Sequence record: OZ035810.1
Length of the DNA stretch: 64,000 nt
DNA from: Gamaleyavirus AN24P2
Reading direction: 5' to 3' (one strand)
Position 1 is the first letter of the stretch. The number at the start of each line of letters is the position of its first letter. Positions 2,302 to 32,322 of this stretch are shown piece by piece. A model generated the notes under the pieces. That model was given only the letters and a program-made list of their open reading frames with translations. It was not told where the DNA came from and ran no database searches. A program made the translations under genes and the position numbers.

Positions 2302-2307
2302 GGAAAC

Positions 2308-5341: not shown

Positions 5342-5366
5342 AAAACTACAACATGAGGAATAACCC

Positions 5367-7670: not shown

Positions 7671-7677
7671 GGTGATT

Positions 7678-7932: not shown

Positions 7933-7958
7933 TAAAAGCCCCTTACGGGGCTTTTCTT
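7933..7958 (+). terminator. rho-independent terminator
   Basis: AAAAGCCCC-TTAC-GGGGCTTTT hairpin followed by CTTCT. Confidence 0.6.
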
Positions 7959-8054
7959 CTACCCCACTCTACTATAAATAAGTATTATCTTTTGGTCAGA
8001 CTCTTCTGATACGTCCCAAATGGGTATCATTAAAGAAACATTAAGGACTTTCTC

Positions 8055-9744: not shown

Positions 9745-9746
9745 CT

Positions 9747-12017: not shown

Positions 12018-12030
12018 GGCAGACCTTCAC

Positions 12031-12375: not shown

Positions 12376-12394
12376 TTAACCGGAGATATTTCCT

Positions 12395-13615
12395 ATGACT
12401 ACGGAAGCTGCAACCACAGCTTCCGACATTCTCGCAATGTCGGATGATGAGATTCTGAATATGGAAGCCCCAGCAGTTATCGCTGAGGAAGACACTTCCA
12501 CTCAGAACAACCCTGAAACCAACGGCGTACAGACTCCTGATGAAGAAGTTGACCCACCTGCTGTTGAAGACCTACCAACCGAAGAAACCTCCCCAGAAGC
12601 CGAACCAGATGCAGAAGATTCAGCAAATACTTTAACTTCTGATAAAGTTGATGATAAAGTTATTGACACAGAAGTTGATAGTAACGGCGAGCCGATTACT
12701 AAAGCTGAACCTTCTACTACTGAACCAGGCCAGGAACAGAAAGAAGAAGGCAAACAGTCTGAAGGTCTGCCTGCTGACTTCAACTATAAGGAAGGTTATG
12801 AGAAGTTGATGGCTCCTTTTAAAGCTAACGGCAAAATGATTACTCCCCGTTCACCGGAGGAGGCCATTAGCCTGATGCAGATGGGTGCTAACTATACTCG
12901 TAAGATGCAAGAACTTCAGCCATACCGTAAGGTAATGCTGATGTTACAGAACAACGGCTTAATGGATGAGGACAAACTTTCTTTCCTGATTGATCTGGAT
13001 AAAAAGAATCCGGAAGCCATTAAGAAGTTGCTCAAAGACTCTGGTACAGACCCTCTGGACTTTAACCCAGATGAGGAAATTAACTACCAGGGTGGCAATC
13101 ACCGTGTTACCGACACCGAAGCAGATTTTGCAACCGAAATTGACGACTTAAAGTCTACTCAAGAAGGACAAGCTACATTAGGTGTTATTAGTTCGACATG
13201 GGATGCTGCCAGTAAAGATGCTCTTTACCAGAACCGTGGCCTACTTCAGACTATTCACGAACAACGTGAGAATGGTATTTATGACACCATTGCAAACGAA
13301 GTGAATCGTCTCCAGATGTTAGGTCAGATTCCGGTTGGTACTCCGTTTATTCAGGCTTACAACCACGTCGGTAACCTTCTTGCACAGCAAGGAGCATTTA
13401 ACCGAGTGGCTAAGCCTGAACCGGTACAAACAGTTAAACCAGTGGTTCAGCCGGTAGTGCGTGTAGCACAGCCTAAGCAGACTCTGGCTAACAGTGAGCA
13501 AGCTAAGGCAGCTTCCCTTAATCGAGCTGCTACACGTAAAGCAACACCTATTGTAAACCCACTCGCTATGAGTGATGAAGATTTCGCTAAACTCCCAGTA
13601 CCGGGTAGTCTTTAA
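12395..13615 (+). CDS. putative scaffolding protein
   Basis: 406-aa protein with a highly acidic, low-complexity N-terminal third, directly upstream of the major capsid gene. Confidence 0.45.
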   Translation: MTTEAATTASDILAMSDDEILNMEAPAVIAEEDTSTQNNPETNGVQTPDEEVDPPAVEDLPTEETSPEAEPDAEDSANTLTSDKVDDKVIDTEVDSNGEPITKAEPSTTEPGQEQKEEGKQSEGLPADFNYKEGYEKLMAPFKANGKMITPRSPEEAISLMQMGANYTRKMQELQPYRKVMLMLQNNGLMDEDKLSFLIDLDKKNPEAIKKLLKDSGTDPLDFNPDEEINYQGGNHRVTDTEADFATEIDDLKSTQEGQATLGVISSTWDAASKDALYQNRGLLQTIHEQRENGIYDTIANEVNRLQMLGQIPVGTPFIQAYNHVGNLLAQQGAFNRVAKPEPVQTVKPVVQPVVRVAQPKQTLANSEQAKAASLNRAATRKATPIVNPLAMSDEDFAKLPVPGSL

Positions 13616-13631: not shown

Positions 13632-14834
13632 ATGTTAAACTATAACGCTCCAGTTAACGGTCAGAAATCTAGCATTGATGGTGCTGGTTCCGACCAGATG
13701 AATACCTTTTATTGGCTGAAGAAAGCTATTATTCAGTCCCGTAAAGACCAGTACTTCATGCCACTGGCTAACACTATTAACATGCCTAAGAACTACGGTA
13801 AGACTGTTAAGGTGTATGAGTACGTTCCACTGCTTGATGATAAGAACATTAACGACCAGGGTATCGATGCTAATGGTGCTACCATCGTTAATGGTAACCT
13901 GTATGGTTCTTCTAAAGACGTCGGTAACATCACTTCTAAACTGCCTCTGCTGACAGAGAATGGTGGTCGTGTTAACCGTGTAGGTTTTACTCGTCTGTCT
14001 CGTGAAGGTTCCATCCATAAGTTCGGTTTCTTCTACGAATTTACTCAAGAGTCTCTGGACTTTGATTCCGATGACCAACTGAAAGAACATCTGTCACGCG
14101 AACTGATGAATGGTGCTGTGCAGTTGACTGAAGCCGTTCTCCAGAAAGACCTGCTGGCTGCTGCTGGTACTGTACTGTATGCAGGTGCTGCTACCTCCGA
14201 TGCCACCATCACTGGTGAAACTTCTACCCCGTCTGTAGTTTCTTATAAGAACCTGATGCGTCTTGACCAGATTCTCACTGAGAACCGTACCCCGACTCAG
14301 ACTACTATCATCACTGGTTCTAAACTGACTGATACTAAAGTACTTGGTGGTACTCGTGTAATGTATGTTGGTTCTGAATTGGTTCCAGAATTGAAAGCGA
14401 TGAAAGACCTGTTCGGTAACAAAGCATTCATTGAAATTCAGCACTATGCTGATGCTGGTACTCTGATGAATGGTGAAGTTGGTTGTATCGATAAGTTCCG
14501 TATTATCCAGGTTCCAGAGATGCTGCATTGGGCAGGTGCAGGTGCTCAAGCTACTTCTAACCCGGGCTACCGTTCCTCTATGGTTAATGGTCAGGAACAC
14601 TACGACGTATTCCCGATGCTGGTAGTTGGTGATGATTCCTTCTCTACCATTGGCTTCCAGACTGACGGTAAGTCCGTTAAGTTCTCTATTATGACTAAGA
14701 TGCCTGGTCGAGAAACTGCTGACCGTAATGACCCGTATGGTGAAACTGGCTTCAGTTCCATCAAGTGGTACTACGGTATCCTGGTTAAACGCCCAGAACG
14801 TCTGGCTATGATTAAGACTGTTGCTCCTCTGTAA
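13632..14834 (+). CDS. major capsid protein
   Basis: 400-aa ORF (N4 major capsid protein is about 400 aa); AGGA RBS; strongly biased codon usage; followed by a hairpin. Confidence 0.75.
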
Positions 14835-16457: not shown

Positions 16458-19112
16458 ATGGGCTTATTCAGTGGGAAGACTAAAGTATACGTAGCATCCT
16501 CTGTCTACAATATGGCAGGGGATATACATAAGCGTCCAAACTATATGAAGACTGTAGTTATCGGTAAGATTGTTGCTGATACTGGATTTACTATGGCAGA
16601 TACTATCTCTGATAGTTACCTGAACGGACCGGGTACTCGTATGCGATTGTTCTCTAGCTGGAGTAAGAATCACTATGACTCTATCGTTGGTATGGCTGGT
16701 TCCTCATTGGGTGTATTAGCCAAGATTGACCCTGCTGTTATAGAGGGTCAAATTACCCCTCCTGCCGGGGAATCTGTCTATGTTCAGGCAGCAAATATTG
16801 GCTTTGCTGATTTTGAGCAGTGGTGTGACCAGTATCTTTATGAGAATGCCCCAAGTCGAATCATGGAACGATTCGACATAGACATTAACGAGGACACTAA
16901 TGAAATTACTATGACCTCCTTAGATGGAGGCTCTACTATTACATTTACACCTACCAACTTTGAACCAGGTGCTCTGTATCTCTATGCTGATTACACATTC
17001 TATAAGTCACCTACTACCTACCCACCCGTAGAAGGTCCGACTACTGTCTATGATAATGAAGATGATTTACCGTCTACCTTGTTGTGGACTACTGTCTCCA
17101 GTGATACGACAGCTAATACAACTAACCTTACTAAGACTATACAGACTCATTCGGTTTATTCTGACGGTAGACCGGATGAGGACAGTACTGTTACTGAACC
17201 AAGTGTGGATAACTGGAACTCTTACGTTAAGGTTTATCGTAGGGGATTCACTGAGAAACCAGATGGTGTAACTGTAGTTGTATCTGACAGGGTAATGACT
17301 CATAAAAAGTTTGGTGAGATTCAATCCAGTACTTCTGTAACTACTAATGTAGTTGATATAGGTAATGGTGTTACTCGTACAGATACGATCACCACTACTA
17401 CTGAGACACTGGTTCGTAAGTATTCCTCCCAGACTACTCATACTGACACTGAAATGACTGCTGTTAGTACTCCCAAGATGCTCATCTATAAGCATAACTC
17501 TGGCAATACTGTACTAGACTCATTATTTGAGACTGAAGCTACTGATAACCGATTCTATCCATTTATTCCAATCAGGAATGATAAACAATGGGTAGAGAAT
17601 GACCCAATTTACCCACACTGTAAAAAGGCTCTTTATAAAGCCACTGGGGGTAAACTTAATAAAGTAACAGCAGAGCTTAAGAAAAATAATGATATAGGGG
17701 ATATACAGTACATCTACGGTACATTTGGTGTATCTCTTAATACTCCAGAGGATACTGCTAAGGAATACATCTATCGTTTTTTTCAGATGGCTACCGAAGC
17801 GTTTCCACCTGACCCAACATACCCAACTCTGGAATCAGTAATTGCAGGATACCAGGCAGCCAATGATGCAGTTGATGCATATGTAGAATGGTGGAACAGG
17901 CAGGAAGGTCATATTGTTGGAACACCTCCCCCCTTGCCAGAATACCCTGTCATACCTAAGCGAGAGTTTAGGGTACATAGTAATAAGCAGTACAAATACG
18001 ACATGACTATTAGCTGGAATTATGTATTTGAAACTACTCACTCAGGTAAAGCATGGTCTGGTGCTAAACAAGGGCAACTTCGAGCCAGGTATGCAGGGGA
18101 TATAACTCTTACACGCAAGAACATACGTACAGCTAGTAACTCTGGTTCAGCTAAAAGATTAGAAGTTACTCCTACGTTTTACTCTATGCAGGAATATGAG
18201 TTGCTTTGGCAAGATGGTAATAACACCTATCGTAAACTTAGGGTGCTGGGCTTACACCATAGCAACAGGGTTTATAAAAACAAGTCAGTGAATATTGATG
18301 TTGCTGAAGCTATGGGTGATGCAGAGGAGAGTGGATTCATAATCCCCCTACATACTAATATCTATCGTTCTATGTCACTGGTTCGTGGTACTCAGTTATC
18401 TACTGCTTGCTCCTACTTAGTGATGAACTCATACAAAAAGGTTAAGAAGAAGTGGTATCAAACTTCTGCCTTTAAGATTGTGGTGGTTGTGGTTGCTGTA
18501 GTTGCATCCGTATTTACTATGGGTGCAGGTGGTGCTGGTATTCTTGGAGCTTACGGTGCAGTCGGTGCATCACTCGGTTTTGTTGGATTGGCTGCCGTAA
18601 TAGTAGGTGCTGTAGCAAACACCATTGCTGCAATGATTCTGATATCCATCACTACTAAAGTAGCTACTTCACTGTTTGGCGATAAGCTAGGTTTTATCAT
18701 TGCTGCTATTGCCTCGATGGTAGCCATGAATGTTGGTACTGCTTTATCTACTGGTACGTCCTTATCTTCTCTAGCCGGTGAAATGATGAATGCCCAAAAC
18801 ATCATGCAGCTTACTAGTTCGGTTGGTAATGGTATTAGTCAGTATATTAATGCATCCACGGCTGCTACTATTCAGAAAGCTGAGAAAGTAATGCAGCAGT
18901 ACAATACTGATATGATGGCAATCAATAAGCAGTATGAAGAGATGTTTGGTACTGCTGGGCAGGGTGTAATTGACCCTATGCAATTCGTGTCAATGGAGTC
19001 GTTGGATTCATTCCTTTCACGTACTCTTATGACTGGTTCGGATATAGCTGACATGTCCTTAAGCATGATAGGTAACTACTCCGATATGACTCTCAATACT
19101 GACCTTGTTTAA
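16458..19112 (+). CDS. large virion protein with C-terminal Gly/Ala-rich membrane-spanning segments (candidate ejection/channel protein)
   Basis: 884 aa; C-terminal region contains consecutive hydrophobic glycine-zipper-like stretches (VVVVVAVVASVFTMGAGGAGILGAYGAVGASLGFVGLAAVIVGAVANTIAAMILI). Confidence 0.45.
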   Translation: MGLFSGKTKVYVASSVYNMAGDIHKRPNYMKTVVIGKIVADTGFTMADTISDSYLNGPGTRMRLFSSWSKNHYDSIVGMAGSSLGVLAKIDPAVIEGQITPPAGESVYVQAANIGFADFEQWCDQYLYENAPSRIMERFDIDINEDTNEITMTSLDGGSTITFTPTNFEPGALYLYADYTFYKSPTTYPPVEGPTTVYDNEDDLPSTLLWTTVSSDTTANTTNLTKTIQTHSVYSDGRPDEDSTVTEPSVDNWNSYVKVYRRGFTEKPDGVTVVVSDRVMTHKKFGEIQSSTSVTTNVVDIGNGVTRTDTITTTTETLVRKYSSQTTHTDTEMTAVSTPKMLIYKHNSGNTVLDSLFETEATDNRFYPFIPIRNDKQWVENDPIYPHCKKALYKATGGKLNKVTAELKKNNDIGDIQYIYGTFGVSLNTPEDTAKEYIYRFFQMATEAFPPDPTYPTLESVIAGYQAANDAVDAYVEWWNRQEGHIVGTPPPLPEYPVIPKREFRVHSNKQYKYDMTISWNYVFETTHSGKAWSGAKQGQLRARYAGDITLTRKNIRTASNSGSAKRLEVTPTFYSMQEYELLWQDGNNTYRKLRVLGLHHSNRVYKNKSVNIDVAEAMGDAEESGFIIPLHTNIYRSMSLVRGTQLSTACSYLVMNSYKKVKKKWYQTSAFKIVVVVVAVVASVFTMGAGGAGILGAYGAVGASLGFVGLAAVIVGAVANTIAAMILISITTKVATSLFGDKLGFIIAAIASMVAMNVGTALSTGTSLSSLAGEMMNAQNIMQLTSSVGNGISQYINASTAATIQKAEKVMQQYNTDMMAINKQYEEMFGTAGQGVIDPMQFVSMESLDSFLSRTLMTGSDIADMSLSMIGNYSDMTLNTDLV

Positions 19113-19125: not shown

Positions 19126-19569
19126 ATGGATTTGTCATTCTTTACGGGCAACCCAACTCCACAGCCAGCGGCTATGTCTTGGATGCCCAATAATAATCAG
19201 AACTTTAATACCCCTGCTATGAATTACATCCCAGGTGCATCCATTGGTATGGGTACAAATGCAGGAGTATCTTCTCCTACTTCTTTCTTGTCTGGTTCAG
19301 CTAATCAGTTGGGAATGAACGTACCTACCTTCCAGTTAGGGCTTGGTGCACTTGGTTCATTGGCTAATATCTATAGTGGTTTCCAGGCCAATAAGTTAGC
19401 CAAAGACCAGTTGAACTTTGCTAAGAGTGTTACTAACACTAACCTGAATAACCAGATTAAGTCTTATAACACTGCTCTGGAAGATCGTGCTCGTAGCCGT
19501 GCTACAGCAGAGAACCGTGACCAGTCTACTGCTGATGCTTATATTGCAGCTAATAAATTAACTCGTTAA
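19126..19569 (+). CDS. virion structural protein
   Basis: ORF-track start 19105 is TTG; ATG at 19126 has an AGGAGA RBS. Confidence 0.4.
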   Translation: MDLSFFTGNPTPQPAAMSWMPNNNQNFNTPAMNYIPGASIGMGTNAGVSSPTSFLSGSANQLGMNVPTFQLGLGALGSLANIYSGFQANKLAKDQLNFAKSVTNTNLNNQIKSYNTALEDRARSRATAENRDQSTADAYIAANKLTR

Positions 19570-19581: not shown

Positions 19582-21546
19582 ATGGCTCAAATTACATGGC
19601 GTAATGTTGATGCACCTAACTTCTCTGGAGTTGGTGACAGCATTCGCACATTTGGAAGCATGATTGGTAACGCCACCTCCGGCTTAAGTGATGCACTGGG
19701 TAATTTCCAGAACGCTGCCAAGCAGGAGGCTGGCAATGCCGTCATGATGAATGCTATGCAGTATCAAGACCCAACTGAGTATCGTAATGCTTTGGCGTCT
19801 GGTGCACTGTTTCAGGGTGTTGACCCTTCTCTGATAAGCCAACGTACTCTCCAGAATCTGGATGAACGAGCAGGTACATTATTGAGTCAGCAAGGTCAAC
19901 AAGGAACCAATGACTACAATAACTATCGTTTTGGTCGATTACAGAAAAATGATTCTGCGTTAGATAATGCTTCTCCCGCTATTCGTTTATTGTCTGAAGC
20001 TTACCAGTCTGGTGACCAGAATCGTATTAATACTGCATTGGGTCAGACTCGTGAGGCATTATCTACGCTCCCAGCTGACCAACAGTTAGAATTGTTAGGT
20101 AGTTTACAAGGACAGGGTAGTGCTGCTATTAATCAGGCGAGCAATCGTTTTGATTTGGGTGTTGCTCAACGTAATGATGCCGATAGTCAGGCAGCTATGG
20201 GTGTAATGGCACAGATTACCCGTGGTGCTGAGAACCCTAATGATGCCCGTCTGTTGGCAGAAGCATACAGTAAGAACCTGTCTCCAGTTGCACAGGCACG
20301 CTTGCAGGGATTACTGGCTAATGCTTACCCGGGTGTTTACGGTAATGGTGTAGGTGCTACGTCTGCTCCTGGTACTGCTGGTACTCGTCAGGGTTCACCT
20401 TACGATGTTACTTATCAGTTTGCTGGTACATCTACTCCTATTACTCAAATGAGTATTGGTGATGTAATTAAACACCAGGATGGTATGAAATCGAACCAGG
20501 GTGCTTCCCCTGTTGGTGCATTCCAGATTAACCAAGCTACTCTGAAAGACTTCGCTCCCAAAGTTCTTGGTTCAGATTGGCAAAGCCAGCCTCTTTCTGC
20601 TGAGAACCAGGATAAGATTGGTAAGGCTATCTTCGAGTCTCGTAAGAATGGCAACCTTAAAGATACCTGGGCTGCTCTTCCTAACTCTACCCCAGGTGCT
20701 TATAAGGACATGACTTGGGAAGAGATTAAACCTGTTATTGCCCAAGCTGAAGTAGGGGCTGACCCACTCGCTATGGTTCAGAATAATCAAGGCAATCAGG
20801 CAGTATCTACCTTGGCTCAGGGTATGATTGGTACACGTTCTATGCAGGATAATACCGGTAGTCTTAATACTGACTTCCTTGGTACTGTCACTGATAATAC
20901 CCCAGTAGGTGAGATTGCTAACCGTCTGTTGGAAGGTGATTTTAAAGGTGCTGACCGTAACTGGGTACTGAACCGACTGAACGATATTTCTCAACGTGGA
21001 AATATGTCACCAGCTATGGCTGCTGCTGTTATGCAACGTGCACAGACTGGTGTACCAGAAGGTTATATTAGTCGTGCTATTGATGCAGTTAACCCATTCA
21101 TTACCAACGAAGCCGGTAATGGTATGCGTCTTAATGACCGTCAGGTAGAACAGTTAATTGAGGGTGTGAAACGGGGAGAACCACTGGAAGGTAGTGTTCG
21201 TAACCTAGGTCGTGCTCAGGCTATGCAGAATATTCAGGCAGCACAGACTGCATATGATGCTGCTGTAGCTGCACTGACAAATACCCAGAATAAGATTAAC
21301 ACCGGGCAAAGTGGTCTTACTGCACTGTTACCTGCACGTCAGGAAGCTGTTAATAAAGCTGCTGCAATGCTACAAGCTGCACAGGCACAAGTACAGGCTG
21401 ACCCAGCTAACCTGGCTCCAAAAGGTTTTCGGTCACAGGCTAGTGTGGACAGGGCACGAGCAAAGGAAGATGAAGAACGTGCTGCACGTTACCTACGTCA
21501 GGCACAAGGATTGCCTGAGTATATGCAACCAAGACAAAATCGGTAA
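19582..21546 (+). CDS. virion structural protein (N4 gp51-like by position)
   Basis: 654-aa ORF immediately upstream of the vRNAP gene; AGGAAA RBS. Confidence 0.45.
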   Translation: MAQITWRNVDAPNFSGVGDSIRTFGSMIGNATSGLSDALGNFQNAAKQEAGNAVMMNAMQYQDPTEYRNALASGALFQGVDPSLISQRTLQNLDERAGTLLSQQGQQGTNDYNNYRFGRLQKNDSALDNASPAIRLLSEAYQSGDQNRINTALGQTREALSTLPADQQLELLGSLQGQGSAAINQASNRFDLGVAQRNDADSQAAMGVMAQITRGAENPNDARLLAEAYSKNLSPVAQARLQGLLANAYPGVYGNGVGATSAPGTAGTRQGSPYDVTYQFAGTSTPITQMSIGDVIKHQDGMKSNQGASPVGAFQINQATLKDFAPKVLGSDWQSQPLSAENQDKIGKAIFESRKNGNLKDTWAALPNSTPGAYKDMTWEEIKPVIAQAEVGADPLAMVQNNQGNQAVSTLAQGMIGTRSMQDNTGSLNTDFLGTVTDNTPVGEIANRLLEGDFKGADRNWVLNRLNDISQRGNMSPAMAAAVMQRAQTGVPEGYISRAIDAVNPFITNEAGNGMRLNDRQVEQLIEGVKRGEPLEGSVRNLGRAQAMQNIQAAQTAYDAAVAALTNTQNKINTGQSGLTALLPARQEAVNKAAAMLQAAQAQVQADPANLAPKGFRSQASVDRARAKEDEERAARYLRQAQGLPEYMQPRQNR

Positions 21547-21553
21547 TACTAAT

Positions 21554-21577
21554 AAAAGCCCTTCGGGGCTTTTTTCT
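21554..21577 (+). terminator. rho-independent terminator
   Basis: AAAAGCCC-TTCG-GGGCTTTT hairpin followed by a T-run; same family as the hairpin at 7933. Confidence 0.6.
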
Positions 21578-21640
21578 TACACTGGCTTACTGTAGAGTAA
21601 GCTTCTTATATACGATATAAGTTTGAACAGGAAACATGCT

Positions 21641-24600
21641 ATGTCAACATTTGACCGTCTGGCAGGTTTCGCAGACAGCATCACTAATGCTAAGCAAGTC
21701 GATGTCTCTACTGCTACCTCTCAGAAGCAAGCTGCACAAGGGCAAAGCCCTTTCCAATTAACCCCAGAGAATGCTTACAATCTCCAAACTGGACGAGTAG
21801 GTAATTTAGGAATCGGTGCGTTCGAACCAGGTTCCCTCCAAGCTGATTTCACTCAGGCTTCCCCATTAGAAATTCTTAATAAATATGGTAATGAGCAAGG
21901 TCTACAGATTCTTAATAGCCGAGCTAATGCTGCTGATGCTGTACGTCAGGACTTATCTAAACAACGTACTAACGCAGAAGCATTTGGTGATACTCTTTCT
22001 GGTGTTGGTCTTGGTGTTGCTAATACCCTGGGGGGCATTGCTGCTCTTGGCACAGGTTTGGTCAATGATAATGCCGGGGCATCCATTGCTTCCGGGATGG
22101 ATTGGTTGAATGAAGGTGTGCACAATCTCCAGTCTGATGCACTGAATGTTACCCGTAAGGTTGTTCAGAATCAGAACCAGATTTCTGCTCAAAAGAACCA
22201 GAAACTTTACGAACAAGACATCAAAAATGGGGAGAGCAGCTTGGTTGCCTCCCTGTCTCGCATTGGTCGTGATGCTTTTGATTCTGTTGCTAATACACTT
22301 GATAACGGTATGGCTGCTACTGATGGGCTAAGTGAAGGTGTTGGTTCCCTCTTTACTGGTGGTCCACTTATCCGTGGTGTATCTGCACTCGGCAAAGTAA
22401 TGGTAGGTGGTGATAAAGCCGTTAAGGGTATTACCTTAGCTGCTGAGTTAGGTTCTCGTCCTGCACAGGTTGCATTGTCTGCTGGTCGTGTTGCTGCACC
22501 TGCTATTGCAATTGGTGGTATGGAAGCTGGTGGTGCATACCAACAGACTGCTTCTGAAATCATGAAGATGTCACATCAAGAATTAGCAAGTAAGTCTCCT
22601 GTTTATCAACAACATATTGCTGATGGTTTATCTCCTGATGAAGCTCGTCGTCAGACTGCATCTGAAACAGGTATCATTGCTGCTGGCTTAACTGCTCCGG
22701 TTGCTGCTGCTACTGGTCCACTGGTATCTAAATTTGAACTTAATCCACTTAAGGTAGGTTCACTGGTTGGTGCTGGTTCTAACATGCTGCGTGAAACTGT
22801 AGAAGAAGGTATCCAGTCTGGTACTAGTCAGTTTGCACAGAACAAAGCAATTCAAGGTAATGTAGATGCTAAACGTGACTTGCTTAAAGGTGTTGGTGAA
22901 CAAGCAGGTCTTGGTGCACTTTACGGCTTCGGTAGTGCTGGGGTTGCTCAAGCTCCAGGTGCAACTGTTAAAGCTGTTGGTGCTACTGCTGGTCCAGCCC
23001 TTCGTACTACTTTAGCCGGTGCTTCCCTGGTTGGTAGTGCACTAGCAAAAGCTGCATCTCCTCTTACTAACATCCTGGTTCAACGTGGTGAAGAAGTTGC
23101 TAAACGAAATGAACAAGCATCCCCTGTAGCTGATGCTACGGTTAATGCTGCTGCACAGGAAGCTGCTGCTCAGGCAGAACAAGCACAAGCAACTGTACAG
23201 GAAGCAGTAGATGCAATGGATATTTCTCCGGAAGAGAAAGCTGCTGCTACCCAGTATGCTGCTGACTTAACTCAGGCAATGAAGTTTGACCCGGTAGAAT
23301 TGGAACAAACTAACCCAGCAATCCGTGAAGCTGTTTCTGGTTCCACTAACCGTGTTGAAGCTATTCAGAAGATGGCTGACCTGGTTAATACTGCTGAGGA
23401 TCCTAACGTTCAAATGGAAGCTGCAATCCAGATGTATGACAATATCATGTCTATGGATAGCTTCATTAACCGTGACCCGGGTGCTCTGGCTAATCTGGAA
23501 CAAGGTTCTCCTGCTGCTGCGATTGTAGACCAGTTCTCCGGTCTGATGGCTAACGTACAGAATACTCCGAAGGTACTCCGTGCATTTCGTGCCATCCATT
23601 CCATGATTCAGGAACAGGCTGAAGCGGGTAAATTGAAAGCTACTGAAGAAGCTAACCAAGCTCAGGCAAACAACATTGCTATGGCTGCTGATGTGTCTCC
23701 AGAAGTTCTGGATGTAGAATCAGTGAACATGGTTCTGAAGCACGCAAGTGAAGGTAAGATTACATTAGGGAATCGTCAGCGTGCTGCCCTGCAATCTGCT
23801 GCTGCTCTATTGCAAGGAGCACGAGAATTTGACGCTAAAGCAGAAGAACTGGGCTTACGTCCTCAAGACATTGTTAGTAAACAAATTAAAACCGACGAAT
23901 CTCGTTCTAATGAAGGCCAGTACTCTGCGTTGCAACATGCTAAACGCATTCGTTCTGCGTACAACTCTGGTAACTTCGATTTGGCTTCCGCTTATCTCGA
24001 CGACTTTATGAAGTTCGCCCAGCACATGCAGAATAAGGTCGGAGCGTTGAATGAGCATTTGATTTCTGGGAATGCGGATAAGAATAAGTCTGTCCATTAT
24101 CAGGCTCTTACTCCCTCCCGTGAATGGGTACGTAGTCGTACTGGCCTCGGTGTCAATCCGTATGATACCAAGTCTGTTAAGTTTGCCCAGCAAGTAGGAC
24201 TGGAGGCCAAAACCGTAGCTGATATTGTTAATGCACTTGCTACGGCTTACCCGGAGCTTAATGTTTCTCATGTTAAAGTTACTCCATTAGATTCACGTCT
24301 GGACAAGCCTGCTGCCCAGGTGGTTAAAGAGTTCCGTCAGGGCAATCTTGATGCTGCTCAATCCCAACAGACCAATGAACCAGTGAATCAGGTTGATGAA
24401 ACTCCTGTTACAAAACAGGAACCAGTTACCCCTACTGTACAGACTAAACCCTCTGTTAGTGAAGCTGTTAAAACAGAACCTACTATTAAAGAGTCTAAAC
24501 CACAGTCTGTAAAAGAACCTGAGAACCAGTCCGAAAAGCAGGATGCTGCCATCACTAATGAGGATACCACTCAGGAAGTAGCTGAAACTAAAACGGAAAT

Positions 24601-27600
24601 GGAAGCAGTGTTCCCTGTCTATAACAATGACAAGACACCGAGCCAGTTCCTTAAAGCATTTGCTCTGCCGGAAGAACCTAAGACTCGTACCATTGGTTCT
24701 GAATCTCCTTTGACTGATGTTAAGCAAGCACTGTCTTCTGCTGCTCGCTTTGAAGCATTCACACAAAAAGAAAATAACGCTCTCACAAGTGATGTGATGA
24801 AACGTTATCAGGACTTACTGGGCTTTGGTGAAACTCTGAAGACTACTCTTTCTGACCGTCTGGCTAAGTTCCTTGCTAACAAAAATGTTGGTAAACGTTT
24901 TGCAGAAGGTACTGAAGCTAACCGTTGGGTAGGTGGTAAACTGCTGAATATCGTTGAACAAGACGGTGACACCTTTAAGTTCAATGACCAGTTGTTAGAG
25001 ACTGCTGTACTTGCTGGTCTGCAATGGCGACTAACTGCTACACAGAATGCTGCTGTTAAAGACATGAAAGACATAGCTGCTATTACTGGTGTAGAAGCAT
25101 CCCTGTTACCTGAAGGTATTCTGGCTGAATTTGAGAATGCTCAGACTCTGGTTGAAGCTACTAGCTCACTGGCTCAAAAGATTGAATCCTACTGGGGTTT
25201 GAATCGTAATCCTAATGCACCACTGGGCTATACCAAGGGTATCCCAATGGCAATGGCTACAGAGATTCTGTCTTCCCTTATTGAGATGGGTGAAGTTAAA
25301 GAGTCTATGCTGGATGTGTCTGAAATTGACCCAGCCTCCGATAAGACTGTAGGTCTGTACACCATTGAGAAGCTGGATGATAACGATGCCATTAACAATT
25401 TCCCTACTGCTATTGAGGAAGCTGTCCTCGTAGAACCAGAAGAGAAAATGTACTTTGGTGATGATATTCCTTCCGTGGCTCAAACTCAGTTACGTAATCC
25501 GGCTGTTAAGAATACCCCTGAACAGAAAGCTGCTCTTAAAGCAGAACAGGCTACTGAGTTCCGTGTACACATGCCTATGGTTAACTTCTATGAAGCATTA
25601 GGTCGTGACAACATTCTGGAACTGATGGGTGCTGGTACGCTTAATCCTGAACTACTGAACGTAAACACTGCTAAATCACTGGAAGGTAAGAACCTGTCAG
25701 TGTCTATGGCATATGATTCCTTGTTTGGGGTAATCAATCAGGTTCAGGAACAGGAGAATGGACTGGATACTCCTATTCACTATGGTTATAACATGACCCG
25801 TGTAGGTCGTATGCAGATGCTTGGTAAGAATAACCCACAATCCAGTAAGCTGGTGCGTGAAGCAATTCTGCCAACCTTCTCTACTATTGACTTGAGTAAT
25901 GAAAACAGCCAAACGTTCTCAGACTTCCAGTTAGGTCTGGCTCAGGCATTAGGCATCAAGGTACATAACATGTCCCGTGAAGCTATGTCTGAAAAGCTGA
26001 CTAAAGCTCTGGAAGGTAACCTGAAACCTGCTGTTGATATGATGGTTGAGTTTGATAAGTCTGGTCACTTACCAGTTGATGCAGTGGATATTCTGAAGAC
26101 GTCTCTTGGTGGCGATAAATCCTTCGTAGCTCTTATGGCTCTTATGGAATATGCCCGTTACCTGAACAGTGATGACCGTGCCAACTTTAATACCCCACTG
26201 TACGTTGAAGCCGATGGTGTAACTAACGGACCAATCAACGCAATGGTATTAATGACGGGTGGTAAGTTCACTTCAGACTGGGTTAAGAATACTGCTAAAG
26301 GTGGTCTGTTCTTTGGTAAAGCTGGTAAGACTATGAATGAACACCGTTCACAGGATGACAGTGTTGACTTGTATGAAGCATCTACCAACAGTCTGCAACA
26401 AGCTCTGAATGAGTTACGTACTACTTACCGTAACAACGTTCCGGTTATGAACCAGATGAATCATCTCCAAAAGTTAATGGACCTGTTCATTAAAGACTTT
26501 AACCTGAACGAAGACGGTACTCTGGACCTGAAGCGTGGTATCGCTAAAAACCCACTGACTATTACCATCTATGGTTCCGGTGCTCGTGGTATTGCAGGCA
26601 AGATGGTTAGTGCAATTACTGATACCATCTATGAACGCTTCAGTGACGTTCTGCAAGCTCGCGCTGCTGACCCTAGCATTTCCCCAGCTATGGCAATGTT
26701 TGGTAAAGAGGCTGCGTCTGAGACTGATGCTCAGGCTATGCTGGATACTTTCCTTACATCTATGGAAGCACTGACTGGTAATGTTCCAGTTATGCGTAAA
26801 GGTGAGCTGTCTATTCAACAAGTAGAAGGTGCTCTGACTGGTAAGTTAGACCCCCAGAAGTTTACTGTATCTGGTAATGCTCTGAAGAACCTGCAAGAGA
26901 ACATGCTTCACTTGTTCGTTGAACCAATGCGTACTGGTATTCGAAATACTGTTGGTGAAGGTCTAATGCACTCTACTGAGAACTTGCAGAAGGCTACCCA
27001 GATTCAGTCTCTGGTATTGCAAGACATGTTCCAGCAAGCAGTACAGACTAAGCTGGCAGAAAAAGAAAAAGACCCAACATGGAAGAAGGGTGATTTCTTA
27101 ACTCAGAAAGAACTGAACGAAATCCAGGAATCATTGTCTCCACTGGCTCCAATGATTGAGACTGGTTCGCAGACTTTCTACATTGCTGGTAGTGAGAATA
27201 CTGACGTTGCTAACCAAGTACTGGCTACCAACTTAGATGACCGTATGCGTGTGCCAATGAGCATCTATGCTCCTTCACAGGCAGGTGTTGCAGGTATTCC
27301 ATTTATGACCATTGGTACTGGCGATGGCATGATGATGCAGACCCTTTCTACTATGAAAGGTGCTCCGAAGAATACCCTGAAAATCTTTGATGGTATGAAC
27401 ATTGGTATCAATGACATCACTGATGCAAGTCGTAAAGCTAACGAGGCTGTATATACTTCCTGGCAGGGGAATCCTATCAAGAATGTTTATGACTCCTTTG
27501 CTAAGTTCATGAAGAACGTAGACTTCAGCAAACTGTCCGATGAAACTAAACAGGCTATCGCTAAGTCTGCTTTGGAATATGACCAGCGTGAGGGTGCTAC

Positions 27601-30600
27601 TGATGCCTTATTACGTGCAGGTGCTGAACAGATTGAGCGTAACTTGCGTAACATTGCTCTTGGTGTAGATATTCGCCATAAAGTAATGAACCAGGTACAG
27701 ACTACTGTTGACCAGATGGCTGCTGTAGGTGCTCCTTATGTGAACAACGGTAAAATCTCTCTGGAAGGTCTGACTGTAGACCAGCAAGTAGCTAAGCTGA
27801 ACGAATTGTTTGATGCTGAATTAAACAAACGTCGTGATGCAGTACGTGCTGCTAAAGCAGAACCAGTGAAAGAAGTACCAGCAATTGAGCAGGTTGGTCG
27901 TGTACTGAAGTCTGGTGTACGTCTGCTGTCTAATACTGCTATCTCTAAGCTGGCTAAAGAGATGTCTCAGGAACAACAAGCAGTACTGAAAGAAGTACAG
28001 AAATCCCCTGCTGCTAAAGACTACAAGGTTGTCTATGGTACACCTGCCCAACTGGATGCTTACGCTATTGAGAAGAACATTACTCGCCCAGCACCGGAAG
28101 ATATTGAAGCTGCTGAAGCAGGTAATGCATACGGCTGGACTAACTTCGAAGATAAGACCATTTATCTAGTTACCCCTTCCTTAGAAACTCTGGTTCATGA
28201 ATTGGTACATGCTTCTACTTTTGAATCTGTACTGACTCACTATGAAGGTACTCCTAATGAAGCAGTTCAGAACATTGAAGACCTGATGAACCAGTTCCGT
28301 GCTCTGGATGTTAAGGATGAATCTCCGGCAGTACGTGAAGCGTATGCTGATGCACTTAATACCATTAATGGTCACTTGTCCAATGGATTCATTGAGCCAT
28401 CAATGGCTAAAGCTGCTGCACTTAACGAGTACATGGCTTGGGGCTTAACCAACCGTGAACTGATTAGTAAGCAGAAGAAAACCACTGCACTTAAGACTAT
28501 GGTTCAGGCTGTGTATGAAGCAATCAAGCGTCTGGTATTTGGGCGTAAGAAAGCACCAGCTAATGCAGATGATATGTTCTCCGGCTTACTGTTTAACTCT
28601 GCTGTAGTAATGCGAGGACAAGCTCCTACTGCTGCTGTAGCTAAAGATACTACCCTGTTCCATAACAAAGCATACGGTGATAATACTCGTCTGGAAGAAT
28701 TAGGAAAAACCTTCGATAAGTTAATTACTGACTACATTGGTTCAGAACCAGTACAACAAGTAATTCGTAAAGGTAAGTTCTCTGATGCAGTAGTGAATGC
28801 AACTAAAGTAACCCGTGATGTTCAGGCTCATGGCTTCGCTATGAATATGCAGGAACAGCGTCTCTTTACTAACATTGTTGCTGCTCTGGCTACTGAGGCT
28901 GCTATTAACCCTGCTGCTTTGGCTCGTGCACAGGAATACTACACGCATGTTACTAAGAACCTGACTGTTGAAGCATTTATGGCTGACCCAGATAGTACTA
29001 ACCCTGCTGACCGTTATTACGCTCAACAGAAGTTCGATACCATCATGGGTGCTAACAATATTGAGTTTGATGCACAGGGACGTTCTTCCTTACTGCCTAC
29101 CTTTGTTGGGCTGGCAATGGTAAGTGAAGAAGTACGTAAGGTACTGGCTGATATTCCTGTTATGAAAGCAGATAAGCAATCCGGTAATACAGTTGATGCA
29201 ATGCTGACTAACATTGGTACTGCTGCAATGGCTAGTCTGAATGCTCGTGTAGCAGGTGATACCAAAGCTACTAATGTACAGGAAGGTATGGATGCACTGG
29301 CTCAAACAATCATGCAGACTAGCCTTAATGCACAGTCCTTTTATGATTCTGTTGCTACTCCTAGTGGTAATGCTATTGACCGTGCTAACCAGTATCTGGT
29401 GGACTCTATTGATGTATTGTCTACCCGTGCTTTAGAAGGTGCTCGTGAAGTTGCAGCTAATACCAAGAACCCGTTGGTTAAAGGTGCTGCTCATGCTGCA
29501 CAACTGATTGCTGCTATTGCTACAGAGAAGAATGGTGAAATCGTAGCCGAAGGAGTTATGGCTGCAATGAACCAGGGTAAGGTATGGCAACCTTTCCATG
29601 ACCTGGTTAATGACTTAACTGGTCGTACTAAGAGCAATGCTTCTGTGTATGATTTGATTAAGGCAGTTCGTGCACAGGTACAGGCTGACCGTCAACAATT
29701 CCGTGAACATTTGCCTACTACTATCGCATCTAAGTTCAGCCGTAAGCTGACTAATGATGAGTGGAAAGCAATGCACACTGGCATGGGTAAAACTGACTTG
29801 GCTGTCCTGCGTGACACTATGTCTTTGGCTGAAATCCGTGATTTGCTGTCGGACCAAAAGATTGTTGACCGTGAAGTGAATAAGCTGGAAGCAGATTTGC
29901 AGAAGCAAGCTGGACGTAACTGGCCTCTGATTAGTCGTAAATCTAAGCAACTGGCTCAGTTTATGATTAATGGTACAGTTGGTAATAACTTGCTGCGTAA
30001 TGCTACTGCAATTTCTCGTTTACTGGGTGAACGTAAGACTACTAGTTCTATTGTAGATGTAGCTAAACTGGATAAACTGATTACCCTGTATGCACTGGAA
30101 GCAATGAGTAATACTGACCGTGAGATGCTATCTTCACTGGCTCAAACAGAAGTTGATGGGATTGATTTTGCTACTTCTTACCTGGTTGGTCAGCGTAAAG
30201 ATGAAATGGCTAAAGCTAAGTCTGACATGCGTGCAACCCTGAACCAGTACAAAGGTTACATTCCTGGTGAGACTAAACAAGGTGTTAACCTGATTGTTGC
30301 TGAAGACAGTCAATTTGCTGATTTGATTGAGAAGTCCTATGTGCGACTGGGTACTTATCAGGGTAGCTCTGCTAATCGTGGTCCAGCACGTAGTTACTAC
30401 TTTGCACCAGTACAGGCACAGGCTCCATTCTCACAGGGTATCTTACAGAACGTTCGTAATACTGCTGGTGGTGTAGACCTTGGTACAGGCTTTACGATGG
30501 GTACAATGGTAGCTGGTCGTATCACTGACAAGCCTTCCGTAGACCGTATCACTAAAGCACTGGCTCGTGGTGAACGTGGTAATGAACCACTGCTGCCTGT

Positions 30601-31999
30601 GTATGATGACAAAGGTAATGTAGTTGCCTATGAGCAATCTATTGACCCTAACATGCTGAAGCACATTGAGGGTGAGAACCATCTTGCTCGTGCAATTGGT
30701 GTATGGCGTGGTCGTCAGGTAGAGGAAGCTAAGGCCCAGCGTTTCAACGATATGCTGATTGAAAATCTGCATAGCATGTACGAGAACGACATTAAAATGT
30801 CTGCCTCTAATAAGTCCCAGTATGTGAACCTTCTTGGTTCTAAACTGGACCCAGTAACTGCTGATGCTCTTAAACTGATGAACACTGAAACACGTCAGAA
30901 AGCAGAAAGCCTGTTTGGACCCGGTGAACTGTGGGTTCGTCGTGATATGCTGAATGATGCACTAGGCTATCGTGCAGCTTCTGTAGGTGATGCCTGGTCT
31001 GGCAATTCTCGTTGGTCCCCAGAAACACTGGATACCTTCAAGAAAGCTATGTTAGGTGTATTTGGCAACCGTGCTTACAAGTACGTAATGGGTGGTGAGA
31101 ACCTGGTTCAGAACTTAGTTAAAGAAGCTAAGACTCTGATTGTAGTTAAGTCAGTAGTTGTACCTGCTGTTAACTTCTTAGCTAACCTTTACCAGATGGT
31201 TGGTCGTGGTGTACCTGTTAAGAACATTGCTAAGAGCATTCCACAGAAGACTGCTGAGATTAACCAGTACCTGAAATCTCGTCTGCGTCAGGTAGATGCA
31301 GAAGCAGAATTACGAGCAGCTACTAATCCGAACCAGATTCGTAAACTTAAAGCTGAGATTCAGTCCATTACTGATAGTCATAAGCGTATGAGTATCTGGC
31401 CTCTATTAGAAGCTGGGGAGTTCTCTTCAATTGCAGATGCTGGTATTGGACGTGATGATATCCTGATTACTGAGGGTAAACTCCATGAATACATGGATAA
31501 GCTGGCTGATAAGTTACCTAAGTCAGTACGTACTGCTGGTCGTTATGCACTTATCACTAAGGATACTGCTTTGTTCCAGGGTATCCAGAAAACGGTTGAG
31601 TACTCTGACTTTATCGCTAAAGCAATCATCTATGATGACTTAACTCAGCGTAAAGGTAAGACACGTGAAGAAGCACTTGGACGTGTAACTGAAGAGTTCA
31701 TTAACTATGACCGTCTGCCGGGACGTTTCCGTGGCTATATGGAAAGTGTTGGTCTTATGTGGTTCTACAACTTTAAGATTCGTTCTGCAAAAGTTGCAGT
31801 GTCCATGATTCGTAATAACCCGGTCCATGCAGCAATGGCGATGTTGGCTCCAACTCCTACCATGTTTGGTAACGTTGGCTTACCTATTCAGGACAACATC
31901 TTTAGCATTGCTGCTAAGGATAGTCTGGATTACTCTTGGGGCTTTGGACAAGGGCTTCGTGCTCACAACCTGAACCCTTGGATGAACCTGGTAAACTAA
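21641..31999 (+). CDS. virion-encapsidated RNA polymerase (vRNAP, N4 gp50-like)
   Basis: Single uninterrupted ORF of about 3,452 aa from the ATG at 21641 (ORF-track start 21623 is TTG); size and position match N4 vRNAP; AGGAAA RBS. Confidence 0.8.
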   Translation: MSTFDRLAGFADSITNAKQVDVSTATSQKQAAQGQSPFQLTPENAYNLQTGRVGNLGIGAFEPGSLQADFTQASPLEILNKYGNEQGLQILNSRANAADAVRQDLSKQRTNAEAFGDTLSGVGLGVANTLGGIAALGTGLVNDNAGASIASGMDWLNEGVHNLQSDALNVTRKVVQNQNQISAQKNQKLYEQDIKNGESSLVASLSRIGRDAFDSVANTLDNGMAATDGLSEGVGSLFTGGPLIRGVSALGKVMVGGDKAVKGITLAAELGSRPAQVALSAGRVAAPAIAIGGMEAGGAYQQTASEIMKMSHQELASKSPVYQQHIADGLSPDEARRQTASETGIIAAGLTAPVAAATGPLVSKFELNPLKVGSLVGAGSNMLRETVEEGIQSGTSQFAQNKAIQGNVDAKRDLLKGVGEQAGLGALYGFGSAGVAQAPGATVKAVGATAGPALRTTLAGASLVGSALAKAASPLTNILVQRGEEVAKRNEQASPVADATVNAAAQEAAAQAEQAQATVQEAVDAMDISPEEKAAATQYAADLTQAMKFDPVELEQTNPAIREAVSGSTNRVEAIQKMADLVNTAEDPNVQMEAAIQMYDNIMSMDSFINRDPGALANLEQGSPAAAIVDQFSGLMANVQNTPKVLRAFRAIHSMIQEQAEAGKLKATEEANQAQANNIAMAADVSPEVLDVESVNMVLKHASEGKITLGNRQRAALQSAAALLQGAREFDAKAEELGLRPQDIVSKQIKTDESRSNEGQYSALQHAKRIRSAYNSGNFDLASAYLDDFMKFAQHMQNKVGALNEHLISGNADKNKSVHYQALTPSREWVRSRTGLGVNPYDTKSVKFAQQVGLEAKTVADIVNALATAYPELNVSHVKVTPLDSRLDKPAAQVVKEFRQGNLDAAQSQQTNEPVNQVDETPVTKQEPVTPTVQTKPSVSEAVKTEPTIKESKPQSVKEPENQSEKQDAAITNEDTTQEVAETKTEMEAVFPVYNNDKTPSQFLKAFALPEEPKTRTIGSESPLTDVKQALSSAARFEAFTQKENNALTSDVMKRYQDLLGFGETLKTTLSDRLAKFLANKNVGKRFAEGTEANRWVGGKLLNIVEQDGDTFKFNDQLLETAVLAGLQWRLTATQNAAVKDMKDIAAITGVEASLLPEGILAEFENAQTLVEATSSLAQKIESYWGLNRNPNAPLGYTKGIPMAMATEILSSLIEMGEVKESMLDVSEIDPASDKTVGLYTIEKLDDNDAINNFPTAIEEAVLVEPEEKMYFGDDIPSVAQTQLRNPAVKNTPEQKAALKAEQATEFRVHMPMVNFYEALGRDNILELMGAGTLNPELLNVNTAKSLEGKNLSVSMAYDSLFGVINQVQEQENGLDTPIHYGYNMTRVGRMQMLGKNNPQSSKLVREAILPTFSTIDLSNENSQTFSDFQLGLAQALGIKVHNMSREAMSEKLTKALEGNLKPAVDMMVEFDKSGHLPVDAVDILKTSLGGDKSFVALMALMEYARYLNSDDRANFNTPLYVEADGVTNGPINAMVLMTGGKFTSDWVKNTAKGGLFFGKAGKTMNEHRSQDDSVDLYEASTNSLQQALNELRTTYRNNVPVMNQMNHLQKLMDLFIKDFNLNEDGTLDLKRGIAKNPLTITIYGSGARGIAGKMVSAITDTIYERFSDVLQARAADPSISPAMAMFGKEAASETDAQAMLDTFLTSMEALTGNVPVMRKGELSIQQVEGALTGKLDPQKFTVSGNALKNLQENMLHLFVEPMRTGIRNTVGEGLMHSTENLQKATQIQSLVLQDMFQQAVQTKLAEKEKDPTWKKGDFLTQKELNEIQESLSPLAPMIETGSQTFYIAGSENTDVANQVLATNLDDRMRVPMSIYAPSQAGVAGIPFMTIGTGDGMMMQTLSTMKGAPKNTLKIFDGMNIGINDITDASRKANEAVYTSWQGNPIKNVYDSFAKFMKNVDFSKLSDETKQAIAKSALEYDQREGATDALLRAGAEQIERNLRNIALGVDIRHKVMNQVQTTVDQMAAVGAPYVNNGKISLEGLTVDQQVAKLNELFDAELNKRRDAVRAAKAEPVKEVPAIEQVGRVLKSGVRLLSNTAISKLAKEMSQEQQAVLKEVQKSPAAKDYKVVYGTPAQLDAYAIEKNITRPAPEDIEAAEAGNAYGWTNFEDKTIYLVTPSLETLVHELVHASTFESVLTHYEGTPNEAVQNIEDLMNQFRALDVKDESPAVREAYADALNTINGHLSNGFIEPSMAKAAALNEYMAWGLTNRELISKQKKTTALKTMVQAVYEAIKRLVFGRKKAPANADDMFSGLLFNSAVVMRGQAPTAAVAKDTTLFHNKAYGDNTRLEELGKTFDKLITDYIGSEPVQQVIRKGKFSDAVVNATKVTRDVQAHGFAMNMQEQRLFTNIVAALATEAAINPAALARAQEYYTHVTKNLTVEAFMADPDSTNPADRYYAQQKFDTIMGANNIEFDAQGRSSLLPTFVGLAMVSEEVRKVLADIPVMKADKQSGNTVDAMLTNIGTAAMASLNARVAGDTKATNVQEGMDALAQTIMQTSLNAQSFYDSVATPSGNAIDRANQYLVDSIDVLSTRALEGAREVAANTKNPLVKGAAHAAQLIAAIATEKNGEIVAEGVMAAMNQGKVWQPFHDLVNDLTGRTKSNASVYDLIKAVRAQVQADRQQFREHLPTTIASKFSRKLTNDEWKAMHTGMGKTDLAVLRDTMSLAEIRDLLSDQKIVDREVNKLEADLQKQAGRNWPLISRKSKQLAQFMINGTVGNNLLRNATAISRLLGERKTTSSIVDVAKLDKLITLYALEAMSNTDREMLSSLAQTEVDGIDFATSYLVGQRKDEMAKAKSDMRATLNQYKGYIPGETKQGVNLIVAEDSQFADLIEKSYVRLGTYQGSSANRGPARSYYFAPVQAQAPFSQGILQNVRNTAGGVDLGTGFTMGTMVAGRITDKPSVDRITKALARGERGNEPLLPVYDDKGNVVAYEQSIDPNMLKHIEGENHLARAIGVWRGRQVEEAKAQRFNDMLIENLHSMYENDIKMSASNKSQYVNLLGSKLDPVTADALKLMNTETRQKAESLFGPGELWVRRDMLNDALGYRAASVGDAWSGNSRWSPETLDTFKKAMLGVFGNRAYKYVMGGENLVQNLVKEAKTLIVVKSVVVPAVNFLANLYQMVGRGVPVKNIAKSIPQKTAEINQYLKSRLRQVDAEAELRAATNPNQIRKLKAEIQSITDSHKRMSIWPLLEAGEFSSIADAGIGRDDILITEGKLHEYMDKLADKLPKSVRTAGRYALITKDTALFQGIQKTVEYSDFIAKAIIYDDLTQRKGKTREEALGRVTEEFINYDRLPGRFRGYMESVGLMWFYNFKIRSAKVAVSMIRNNPVHAAMAMLAPTPTMFGNVGLPIQDNIFSIAAKDSLDYSWGFGQGLRAHNLNPWMNLVN

Positions 32000-32002: not shown

Positions 32003-32035
32003 AAAAAAGCCCCTCTATGAGGGGCTTTGCTTTTA
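32003..32035. terminator. bidirectional terminator between convergent vRNAP and minus-strand genes
   Basis: AAAAAAGCCCCTC-TATGA-GGGGCTTTGCTTTT: hairpin with an A-run on one side and a T-run on the other. Confidence 0.6.
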
Positions 32036-32039: not shown

Positions 32040-32270
32040 TTAAGGTGTTTTCCACATTTTAGGCTTACGCCCTTCACTTAAAAATTTACCAGTCTCCTTA
32101 ATCTTTCGTAGTGTTTCTTCAGATGGGAACCACAGGAATGCGAAGTAAAGCTTCTTAGCTACGTAACGAGTTACTCCTAACTTCTCTGCGATTTCATCAA
32201 ATGAATATGTACGAACGGTATTGTTGAGAATGGCTTCACGAACAACAGAGGTAATAGATACTTGTGCCAT
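32040..32270 (-). CDS. small HTH DNA-binding protein
   Basis: 76 aa; ATG with AGGAAAA RBS; helix-turn-helix-like segment SFDEIAEKLGVTRYVAKKL. Confidence 0.4.
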   Translation of the reverse strand: MAQVSITSVVREAILNNTVRTYSFDEIAEKLGVTRYVAKKLYFAFLWFPSEETLRKIKETGKFLSEGRKPKMWKTP

Positions 32271-32290: not shown

Positions 32291-32322
32291 AAAGCCCTCA
32301 CTAAGAGGGCTTGTTTTGTTTT
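32291..32322 (+). terminator. second plus-oriented terminator hairpin
   Basis: AGCCCTC-ACTAA-GAGGGCT stem-loop followed by TGTTTTGTTTT. Confidence 0.4.

Follow-up and report, generated by a model that had tools for sequence, protein, structure and literature searches.

A 10.4-kb gene of Gamaleyavirus AN24P2 as a very probable orthologue of the N4 virion RNA polymerase gene

The closest described relative of the protein analyzed here is gp50, the virion RNA polymerase (vRNAP) of coliphage N4. The gene under study spans 10.4 kb of a 64,000-nucleotide stretch of DNA from Gamaleyavirus AN24P2 (record OZ035810.1), which is referred to as the window in the following. Packaging in the virion and injection into the host have been shown for N4 vRNAP. 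[quoted passage not shown] The latter two are ejection proteins that form the membrane channel, and gp53 serves as the tail plug. The NTD has a role in injection and tethers the enzyme at the inner membrane; membrane-spanning helices are predicted for it, and it inserts into nanodiscs (cryo-EM papers of 2026), whereas the CTD is needed for encapsidation and autoinhibits the polymerase (the autoinhibition again from the 2026 cryo-EM papers). [quoted passage not shown] In N4 mini-vRNAP, the catalytic residues are R424 (T/DxxGR motif), D559 (motif A), K670 and Y678 (motif B) and D951 (motif C), and R119 and W129 read the -11G of the promoter hairpin loop. The cascade continues with a second polymerase, N4 RNAPII, which consists of RNAP1 and RNAP2 and whose expression depends on vRNAP; transcription from the early promoters also helps to draw in the genome. 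The absence of cysteine has been noted in the literature as a hallmark of the vRNAP family that is possibly important for host entry. In Moo19, a member of the same subfamily as AN24P2 (Enquatrovirinae), a vRNAP orthologue has been detected by mass spectrometry of virions.

Two further groups of polymerases are useful for comparison. T7-like RNA polymerases (RNAPs) such as T7 gp1 and mitochondrial POLRMT have the right-hand fold in common with the N4 enzyme, but they use a duplex promoter, whereas N4-type vRNAP, an enzyme four times larger that is packaged and injected, recognizes a hairpin of single-stranded DNA. The RNAP of crAss-like phages is likewise packed into the virion and delivered together with the DNA; its domains resemble those of multisubunit bacterial RNAPs and form a single globular domain, in contrast to the T7-like, modular vRNAP of the N4 type (Nat Commun 2026, discussion).

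In this study, we compared the AN24P2 gene with these systems. It is, with very little doubt, orthologous to N4 gene 50 and belongs to a G7C/N4-like coliphage (Schitoviridae), and its product is predicted to be a single-chain virion RNA polymerase of 375 kDa.

Homology of the 10.4-kb gene product to N4 gp50

When all PDB sequences were searched with phmmer, the AN24P2 protein matched the full-length N4 vRNAP chains (11GP, 9PNQ, 9PNR and others) from query residue 1 to 3451 and chain residue 1 to 3499, with E=0 and 5,082.7 bits. The crystal chains of mini-vRNAP (2PO4, 3C2P, 3Q0A) were matched at query residues 1000-2071, also with E=0, and PHROG 2206, "virion RNA polymerase", spans aa 25-3451. 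In a global alignment with N4 gp50 (YP_950528), which contains only 50 gapped columns, the identity is 67.4%; the values for the individual domains are 60.8% for the NTD, 71.1% for the polymerase domain and 69.3% for the CTD. Within the NTD, two segments (~aa 100-300 and 600-700) are just 42-45% identical to N4 gp50. N4 belongs to the genus Enquatrovirus and AN24P2 to Gamaleyavirus, and within the latter genus the similarity is far closer. The annotated vRNAP of PhAPEC7 (gp81) showed 95% amino acid identity in tblastn, and a megablast search returned 58 other phage genomes, mostly Escherichia/Shigella Gamaleyavirus, that match over at least 80% of the vRNAP gene. The closest of them, including IME11, PGN829.1, phi G17, U1G and others, share 92-94% nucleotide identity with it, and correctly annotated relatives carry the product name "virion RNA polymerase". 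The original prediction, made from the DNA sequence alone, had proposed an N4-type virion RNA polymerase and had named a lack of any similarity to N4 vRNAP or to the T7-like polymerase fold as the result that would speak against it; both similarities were detected, the former over the full length and the latter as described below.

The gene lies in a single open frame that, counted from the first possible start codon, a TTG, covers positions 21623-31999 of the plus strand in the list of open reading frames (ORFs). The biologically sensible start is, however, predicted to be the ATG at 21641, because an AGGAAA motif is located 5' of it and because the product starting there (MSTFDRLAGFADS) aligns with residue 1 of N4 gp50 (MSVFDRLAGFADS). 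The resulting protein of 3,452 aa has a mass of 374.7 kDa and a pI of 5.5, and its frame is exactly the uninterrupted 10.4-kb ORF that had been claimed, in agreement with both the ORF list and the analysis of the start. Given the base composition of the window, 3,452 stop-free codons have a probability of ~10^-89, and stops occur 186 and 472 times in the two remaining forward frames of this DNA. Not a single cysteine is present among the 3,452 residues, although ~22 would be expected from the other proteins of the window; N4 gp50 is also devoid of cysteine (0/3,500). The window corresponds to the first 64 kb of the full record OZ035740.1 (71,225 bp, unannotated) with the same coordinates and 100% identity in megablast. 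A literature search for the name "AN24P2" gave no match.

Domain layout, functional residues and early promoters

The published domain boundaries of N4 gp50 were carried over to the AN24P2 protein via the pairwise alignment (Table 1). This gave the same NTD-linker-polymerase-linker-CTD layout with a plug module as in the full-length N4 structures (9PNQ/9PNR, 11GP/11FW/11GO). The AN24P2 protein is 48 aa shorter than N4 gp50, and the shortening was mapped to the two linkers, linker 1 alone being 21 aa shorter by the mapped boundaries. In the NTD, hydropathy analysis revealed two Gly/Ala-rich hydrophobic segments (aa 118-142 and 343-363) that are conserved with N4, and aa 224-274 (nt 22310-22462) align with the predicted membrane-spanning helices of N4 (residues 224-278). 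The polymerase domain contains four Pfam vRNAP domains (PF21867, PF21624, PF21894, PF21769), which were found with E values of 1e-28 to 1e-100, far above the gathering score. Flanking domains serving injection and encapsidation had been anticipated, in agreement with the N4 literature, which reports these roles for the NTD and the CTD, respectively.

Two relatives carry extra sequence in the vRNAP gene. The vRNAP of VTCCBPA_322 (positions 301-11013 of the locus taken from PP989839.1) has 3,570 aa and carries an in-frame insertion of ~120 aa in linker 1, after the position of aa 980 of the AN24P2 protein, and in U1G a similar-sized extra stretch was found within the vRNAP gene by megablast. The AN24P2 gene is without this extra sequence. 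Linker 1 seems able to accommodate an additional module.

The C-terminal half of the CTD (aa 2655-3399, nt 29600-31840) additionally matched PHROG 19273, a family of unknown function with a profile length of 4,846, with an E value of 2e-23. The idea that the CTD module also occurs outside the schitoviruses, which arose from this match and from a tblastn match in Enterobacter phage SonariX, was dropped, since the protein of SonariX proved to be a complete, though divergent, vRNAP. It is encoded at 2265-13136 of the locus taken from PQ898399.1, next to tailspike-like genes, comprises 3,623 aa, matches PHROG 2206 with E=0 and shows 21% identity over the CTD. Its match to PHROG 19273 (E 1e-126) is much stronger than that of the AN24P2 protein, and this family may comprise giant proteins of the vRNAP type that are still larger or more divergent. 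The 248.7-kb "partial genome" of SonariX represents either an unusually large phage that encodes a vRNAP or a composite of more than one phage.

All seven functional residues known from N4 mini-vRNAP are kept in the AN24P2 protein, with nearly identical local sequence, and the five catalytic residues are invariant in an alignment of polymerase domains from 10 schitoviruses, whose identity is as low as 23%. Around motif C, the identity to N4 is 94%. Based on these conserved functional residues, the invariant catalytic set and the conservation around motif C, the enzyme is almost certainly active.

The corresponding early promoters were searched with the pattern CC-AWAA followed by a 5-bp stem with a GGA loop. 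Hairpin promoters of this type have a stem of 5-7 bp and a 3-nt loop with a G at its center. In N4, the P2 promoter (GAAGC-GGA-GCTTC) is located at 559-571 on the template strand. Exactly one site was found in the window (CCAAAAGCTGCGGAGCAGC), a putative vRNAP-type promoter hairpin that is identical to N4 P3 and lies on the plus strand, i.e., on the template strand for the early genes of the minus strand. Its N4 counterpart (N4 4548-4566) is found shortly upstream of RNAP1 (gp15). The P2 and P1 homologues are present at positions 67928 and 68765 of the full record, within its last 7 kb beyond the window, and the sequences flanking them are homologous to those of N4 P2 and P1. Altogether, three promoter sites are located in the final 13 kb of the record, all on the correct template strand in the early region, compared to 0.2 expected by chance. 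If the G in the center of the P3 loop is counted as -11, the predicted +1 is the C at 63436, and transcription would proceed leftward on the minus strand. The predicted RNA begins with GGUUAUUAAUCACAUUUAGGAGAAUAUGCGAUG, followed by a Shine-Dalgarno sequence and an ATG at 63406, 30 nt downstream. This ATG opens a 158-aa ORF that is inserted between P3 and the RNAP1 homologue, an arrangement that is not found in N4. The partners of the transcription cascade, the genes for both RNAPII subunits and an SSB homologue, are present as well. Since hairpin promoters homologous to N4 P1-P3 occur in the same genome as the vRNAP gene, the predicted polymerase and its presumed targets are both present and co-conserved. 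The conserved residues and promoters together suggest that the AN24P2 enzyme would carry out rifampicin-resistant transcription from single-stranded hairpin promoters.

Table 1. Positions of genes, protein domains, functional residues and regulatory elements in the AN24P2 window.
Feature	Position in window	Strand	Protein residues	Remarks
Portal (gp59)	9747-12014	+
gp58, gp57	between portal and major capsid protein	+
Major capsid protein (MCP)	13632-14831	+
gp55, gp54	between MCP and gp53	+
gp53 homologue	16458-19109	+		tail plug in N4
gp52 homologue	19126-19566	+
gp51 homologue	19582-21543	+
Terminator-like hairpin AAAAGCCCTTCGGGGCTTTT with T-run	21554-21579	+		between gp51 homologue and vRNAP gene
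Shine-Dalgarno-like AGGAAA	21629-21634	+		6 nt before ATG 21641; "aggaaac" likewise upstream of N4 gene 50
vRNAP gene (N4 gp50 orthologue)	21641-31999	+	1-3452	stop codon 31997-31999; 3,453 codons with stop
NTD	21641-24382	+	1-914	N4 1-919
Linker 1	24344-24598	+	~902-986	low complexity, P/T/E/K/Q-rich; joins NTD to polymerase domain
Polymerase (mini-vRNAP) domain	24596-27859	+	986-2073	N4 998-2103
Putative -11G readers	24896-24928	+	R1086, W1096	N4 R119, W129; identical local context GKRFA.GTEANRWVGGKLLN
Pfam vRNAP_dom_2	25520-25867	+	1294-1409
T/DxxGR motif	25808-25810	+	R1390	N4 R424
Pfam vRNAP_plug	25916-26161	+	1426-1507
Motif A	26213-26215	+	D1525	N4 D559
Pfam N4_RNAP_helical	26393-27043	+	1585-1801
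Motif B	26546-26572	+	K1636, Y1644	N4 K670, Y678
Pfam vRNAP_dom	27287-27721	+	1883-2027
Motif C	27389-27391	+	D1917	N4 D951
Linker 2			2074-2083
CTD	27890-31996	+	2084-3452	N4 2123-3500
Terminator-like hairpin with T-run	32006-32028	-		7 nt after vRNAP stop, between convergent units
Weaker counterpart of the preceding hairpin	32012-32024	+
RNAP2 homologue	60581-61798	-
RNAP1 homologue	62088-62906	-
ORF of 158 aa	62930-63406	-		between P3 and RNAP1 homologue
Putative vRNAP-type early promoter hairpin	63435-63453	+ (template)		CC AAAA GCTGC-GGA-GCAGC; identical to N4 P3

Relation to T7-like polymerases and alternative explanations

The original prediction had placed a highly diverged T7-like polymerase core in the central ~1,100 aa and had proposed a profile search of this third of the protein. 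The region in question comprises ~1,090 aa with the Pfam vRNAP domains and the matches to the mini-vRNAP structures, and the T7-like enzymes were reached by hhalign. When a profile of 10 vRNAP polymerase domains was compared with a profile of nine T7-like RNAPs, a probability of 86.3% and an E value of 4.8e-6 were obtained over 421 columns. This alignment covers T7 residues 166-650 with the motifs T/DxxGR, A and B, which are paired as YNMTRVGR/YNMDWRGR, EADGVTNG/AFDGSCSG and KNPLTITIYGS/KRSVMTLAYGS (vRNAP/T7), so that the catalytic residues of these motifs align with T7 R425, D537, K631 and Y639. Motif C (IFDGMN compared to IHDSFG in T7, with D1917 corresponding to T7 D812) was matched by inspection only. 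The four motifs follow each other in the same order as in T7 and contain the catalytic Arg, Asp, Lys, Tyr and Asp. A right-hand fold with palm, fingers and thumb is predicted for the AN24P2 polymerase domain from its 71% identity to the solved N4 domain. The description of the core as highly diverged is therefore appropriate with respect to T7, but not with respect to N4.

No direct evidence speaks against this interpretation, but several results restrict it. The T7-type RNA_pol family of Pfam (PF00940) was absent among the matches of the AN24P2 protein at E ≤ 0.1. No T7 or mitochondrial RNAP chain was found when a hidden Markov model (HMM) of 10 vRNAP polymerase domains was searched against PDB at E ≤ 10, the matches consisting solely of N4 chains and a chance match to T4 lysozyme (E=0.8). 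With T7 RNAP alone, hhalign gave a probability of 4% and aligned the T/DxxGR motif only. The relationship to T7 is thus invisible to single-profile searches and requires either a profile-profile comparison or the solved N4 structure. With respect to the NTD, a homologue search with aa 1-905 yielded only three near-identical matches, the Ala/Gly-rich words having probably saturated the candidate filter, and the NTD of N4 is absent from the experimentally resolved structure.

One could argue that the protein is a giant internal or ejection protein without polymerase activity, i.e., a structural relic, and that the early genes are transcribed by host RNA polymerase. The NTD and the CTD, which have ejection and packaging roles, do account for two thirds of the protein. 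However, all catalytic and promoter-binding residues are intact here and invariant across the family, and the polymerase domain is the most conserved part of the whole protein (71% overall and 94% around motif C). Moreover, the cognate hairpin promoters are conserved, one of them being identical to N4 P3. We therefore consider the loss of polymerase function very unlikely. Even less credit can be given to the notion that the 10.4-kb frame is an artefact created by an assembly join or by fusion of adjacent genes. The unusual length and the unannotated state of the source record might raise such a suspicion, but N4 gp50 can be aligned with the frame collinearly, residue by residue, each of the 58 independent genomes mentioned above matches no less than 80% of it, and the random probability of such a frame is that given above.

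The product names of some matched relatives would point to entirely different functions, namely DNA polymerase, translation initiation factor 2, RNase E or Gram-positive anchor protein. None of these labels is supported by any Pfam, PHROG or PDB match, and the true DNA polymerase, the homologue of N4 gp39, is encoded by a separate gene elsewhere in these genomes, so that the chance of one of these names being correct is negligible. Rather, the GenBank labels are annotation errors, probably triggered by the low-complexity linker. The vRNAP is labelled as DNA polymerase in PBM-2, PBM-3, U1G, UE-M6 and HK2, as translation initiation factor 2 in phi G17, as Gram-positive anchor domain protein in ECBP1, as ribonuclease E in Vibrio phage JSF3 and as lysozyme domain protein in another Vibrio phage. 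An active N4-type virion RNA polymerase remains by far the best explanation for the AN24P2 gene.

Genomic neighbourhood and implications for the infection cycle

Using the PhAPEC7 proteins as queries in tblastn, we found the late genes in N4 order on the plus strand upstream of the vRNAP gene. The order portal-gp58-gp57-MCP-gp55-gp54-gp53-gp52-gp51-vRNAP is the same as in PhAPEC7 and N4, in line with the assignment to an N4-like phage, and the synteny with PhAPEC7 is identical. The homologues of gp53, gp52 and gp51 share 90-94% identity with the PhAPEC7 proteins. The vRNAP gene is the last plus-strand gene before a strand switch; the following genes converge on it from the minus strand, and the GC skew changes its sign at ~32 kb, at the same point where the vRNAP gene ends. 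The proposed location at the end of the structural operon was thus confirmed in that vRNAP is the last late gene after gp53-gp52-gp51, but it has to be refined, as a conserved terminator-like hairpin is located in front of the gene. This hairpin, AAAAGCCCTTCGGGGCTTTT, occurs in identical form upstream of N4 gene 50, even though the remaining intergenic sequence of the two genera has diverged, and PhAPEC7 has a near-identical counterpart that is annotated as terminator. N4 gp50 and the AN24P2 protein hence have in common the catalytic and promoter-reading residues, the absence of cysteine, the position of the gene after gp53-gp52-gp51, the upstream hairpin and the P1-P3 homologues. No sigma-70-like promoter was found in a scan from gp51 to the vRNAP start. 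A palindrome at 21608-21624 (7-bp stem, 3-nt loop) was considered as a vRNAP-type hairpin and dropped, as it is not conserved in N4.

The AAAAGCCCTTCGGGGCTTTT hairpin may limit vRNAP expression by attenuating read-through from gp51, which would keep the copy number low. A more speculative and rather doubtful extension of this idea is that the hairpin acts as a deliberate attenuator that holds vRNAP far below gp51-gp53 and sets the number of ~4 copies per virion, while the divergent NTD segments and the insertion-tolerant linker 1 co-evolve with a genus-specific ejection channel.

Downstream of the vRNAP gene, terminator-like hairpins were found for both strands (Table 1), and at the equivalent site of PhAPEC7 terminators are annotated on both strands. 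In N4 and PhAPEC7, the gp49 gene (DUF2829) is located 3' of the vRNAP gene, but no homologue of it was found in the window. Instead, AN24P2 has a 76-aa ORF at this site (32040-32270, minus strand), which is flanked by the terminator-like hairpins at 32006-32028 and 32292-32312. Two adjacent tRNA genes are located at 33226-33383 on the minus strand, within a stretch of ~1.9 kb (~33000-34900) that is without a convincing ORF. One of them encodes tRNA-Ile (anticodon AAT). In its neighbour, the anticodon loop is irregular and could not be assigned by ARAGORN, but Rfam called a tRNA at 42.8 bits. The homologue of SSB (N4 gp45; 36056-36742, minus strand) aligns with PhAPEC7 SSB over just 229 of 267 residues and differs at its C-terminal end. 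In PhAPEC7, the gp44 and DNA polymerase genes near the SSB gene carry introns with homing endonucleases.

By analogy with N4, the packaging, ejection and autoinhibition of the AN24P2 vRNAP as well as transcription-driven entry of the DNA can be envisaged as follows. A few copies of the enzyme would enter the capsid, for which the CTD would be required. Upon adsorption, the homologues of gp52 and gp51 would build a channel across the cell envelope, and the cysteine-free vRNAP would thread through the ~30-35 Å tail channel as beads on a string. The NTD might then insert into, or be tethered to, the inner membrane. The T7-like polymerase, which the CTD together with plug and motif-B loop would keep inactive, would bind to hairpins extruded from supercoiled early promoters, a process presumably dependent on host gyrase and SSB, with R1086 and W1096 reading the -11G of the loop. 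Finally, vRNAP would transcribe the early genes, including those for RNAPII, and thereby help to draw the genome into the cell.

The N4 vRNAP system is remarkable in that an enzyme of 375 kDa threads through a channel of ~30-35 Å, recognizes hairpins in the DNA and serves as a motor for DNA import. It has already been described, including full-length cryo-EM structures published in 2026, and the AN24P2 gene, too, belongs to what is known: it is an ordinary hallmark gene of the Schitoviridae in a public genome, with solved structures for an orthologue of 67% identity. The value of the present analysis therefore lies in curation, since an unannotated record and several mislabelled relatives gain domain boundaries, catalytic residues and a putative P3 promoter.

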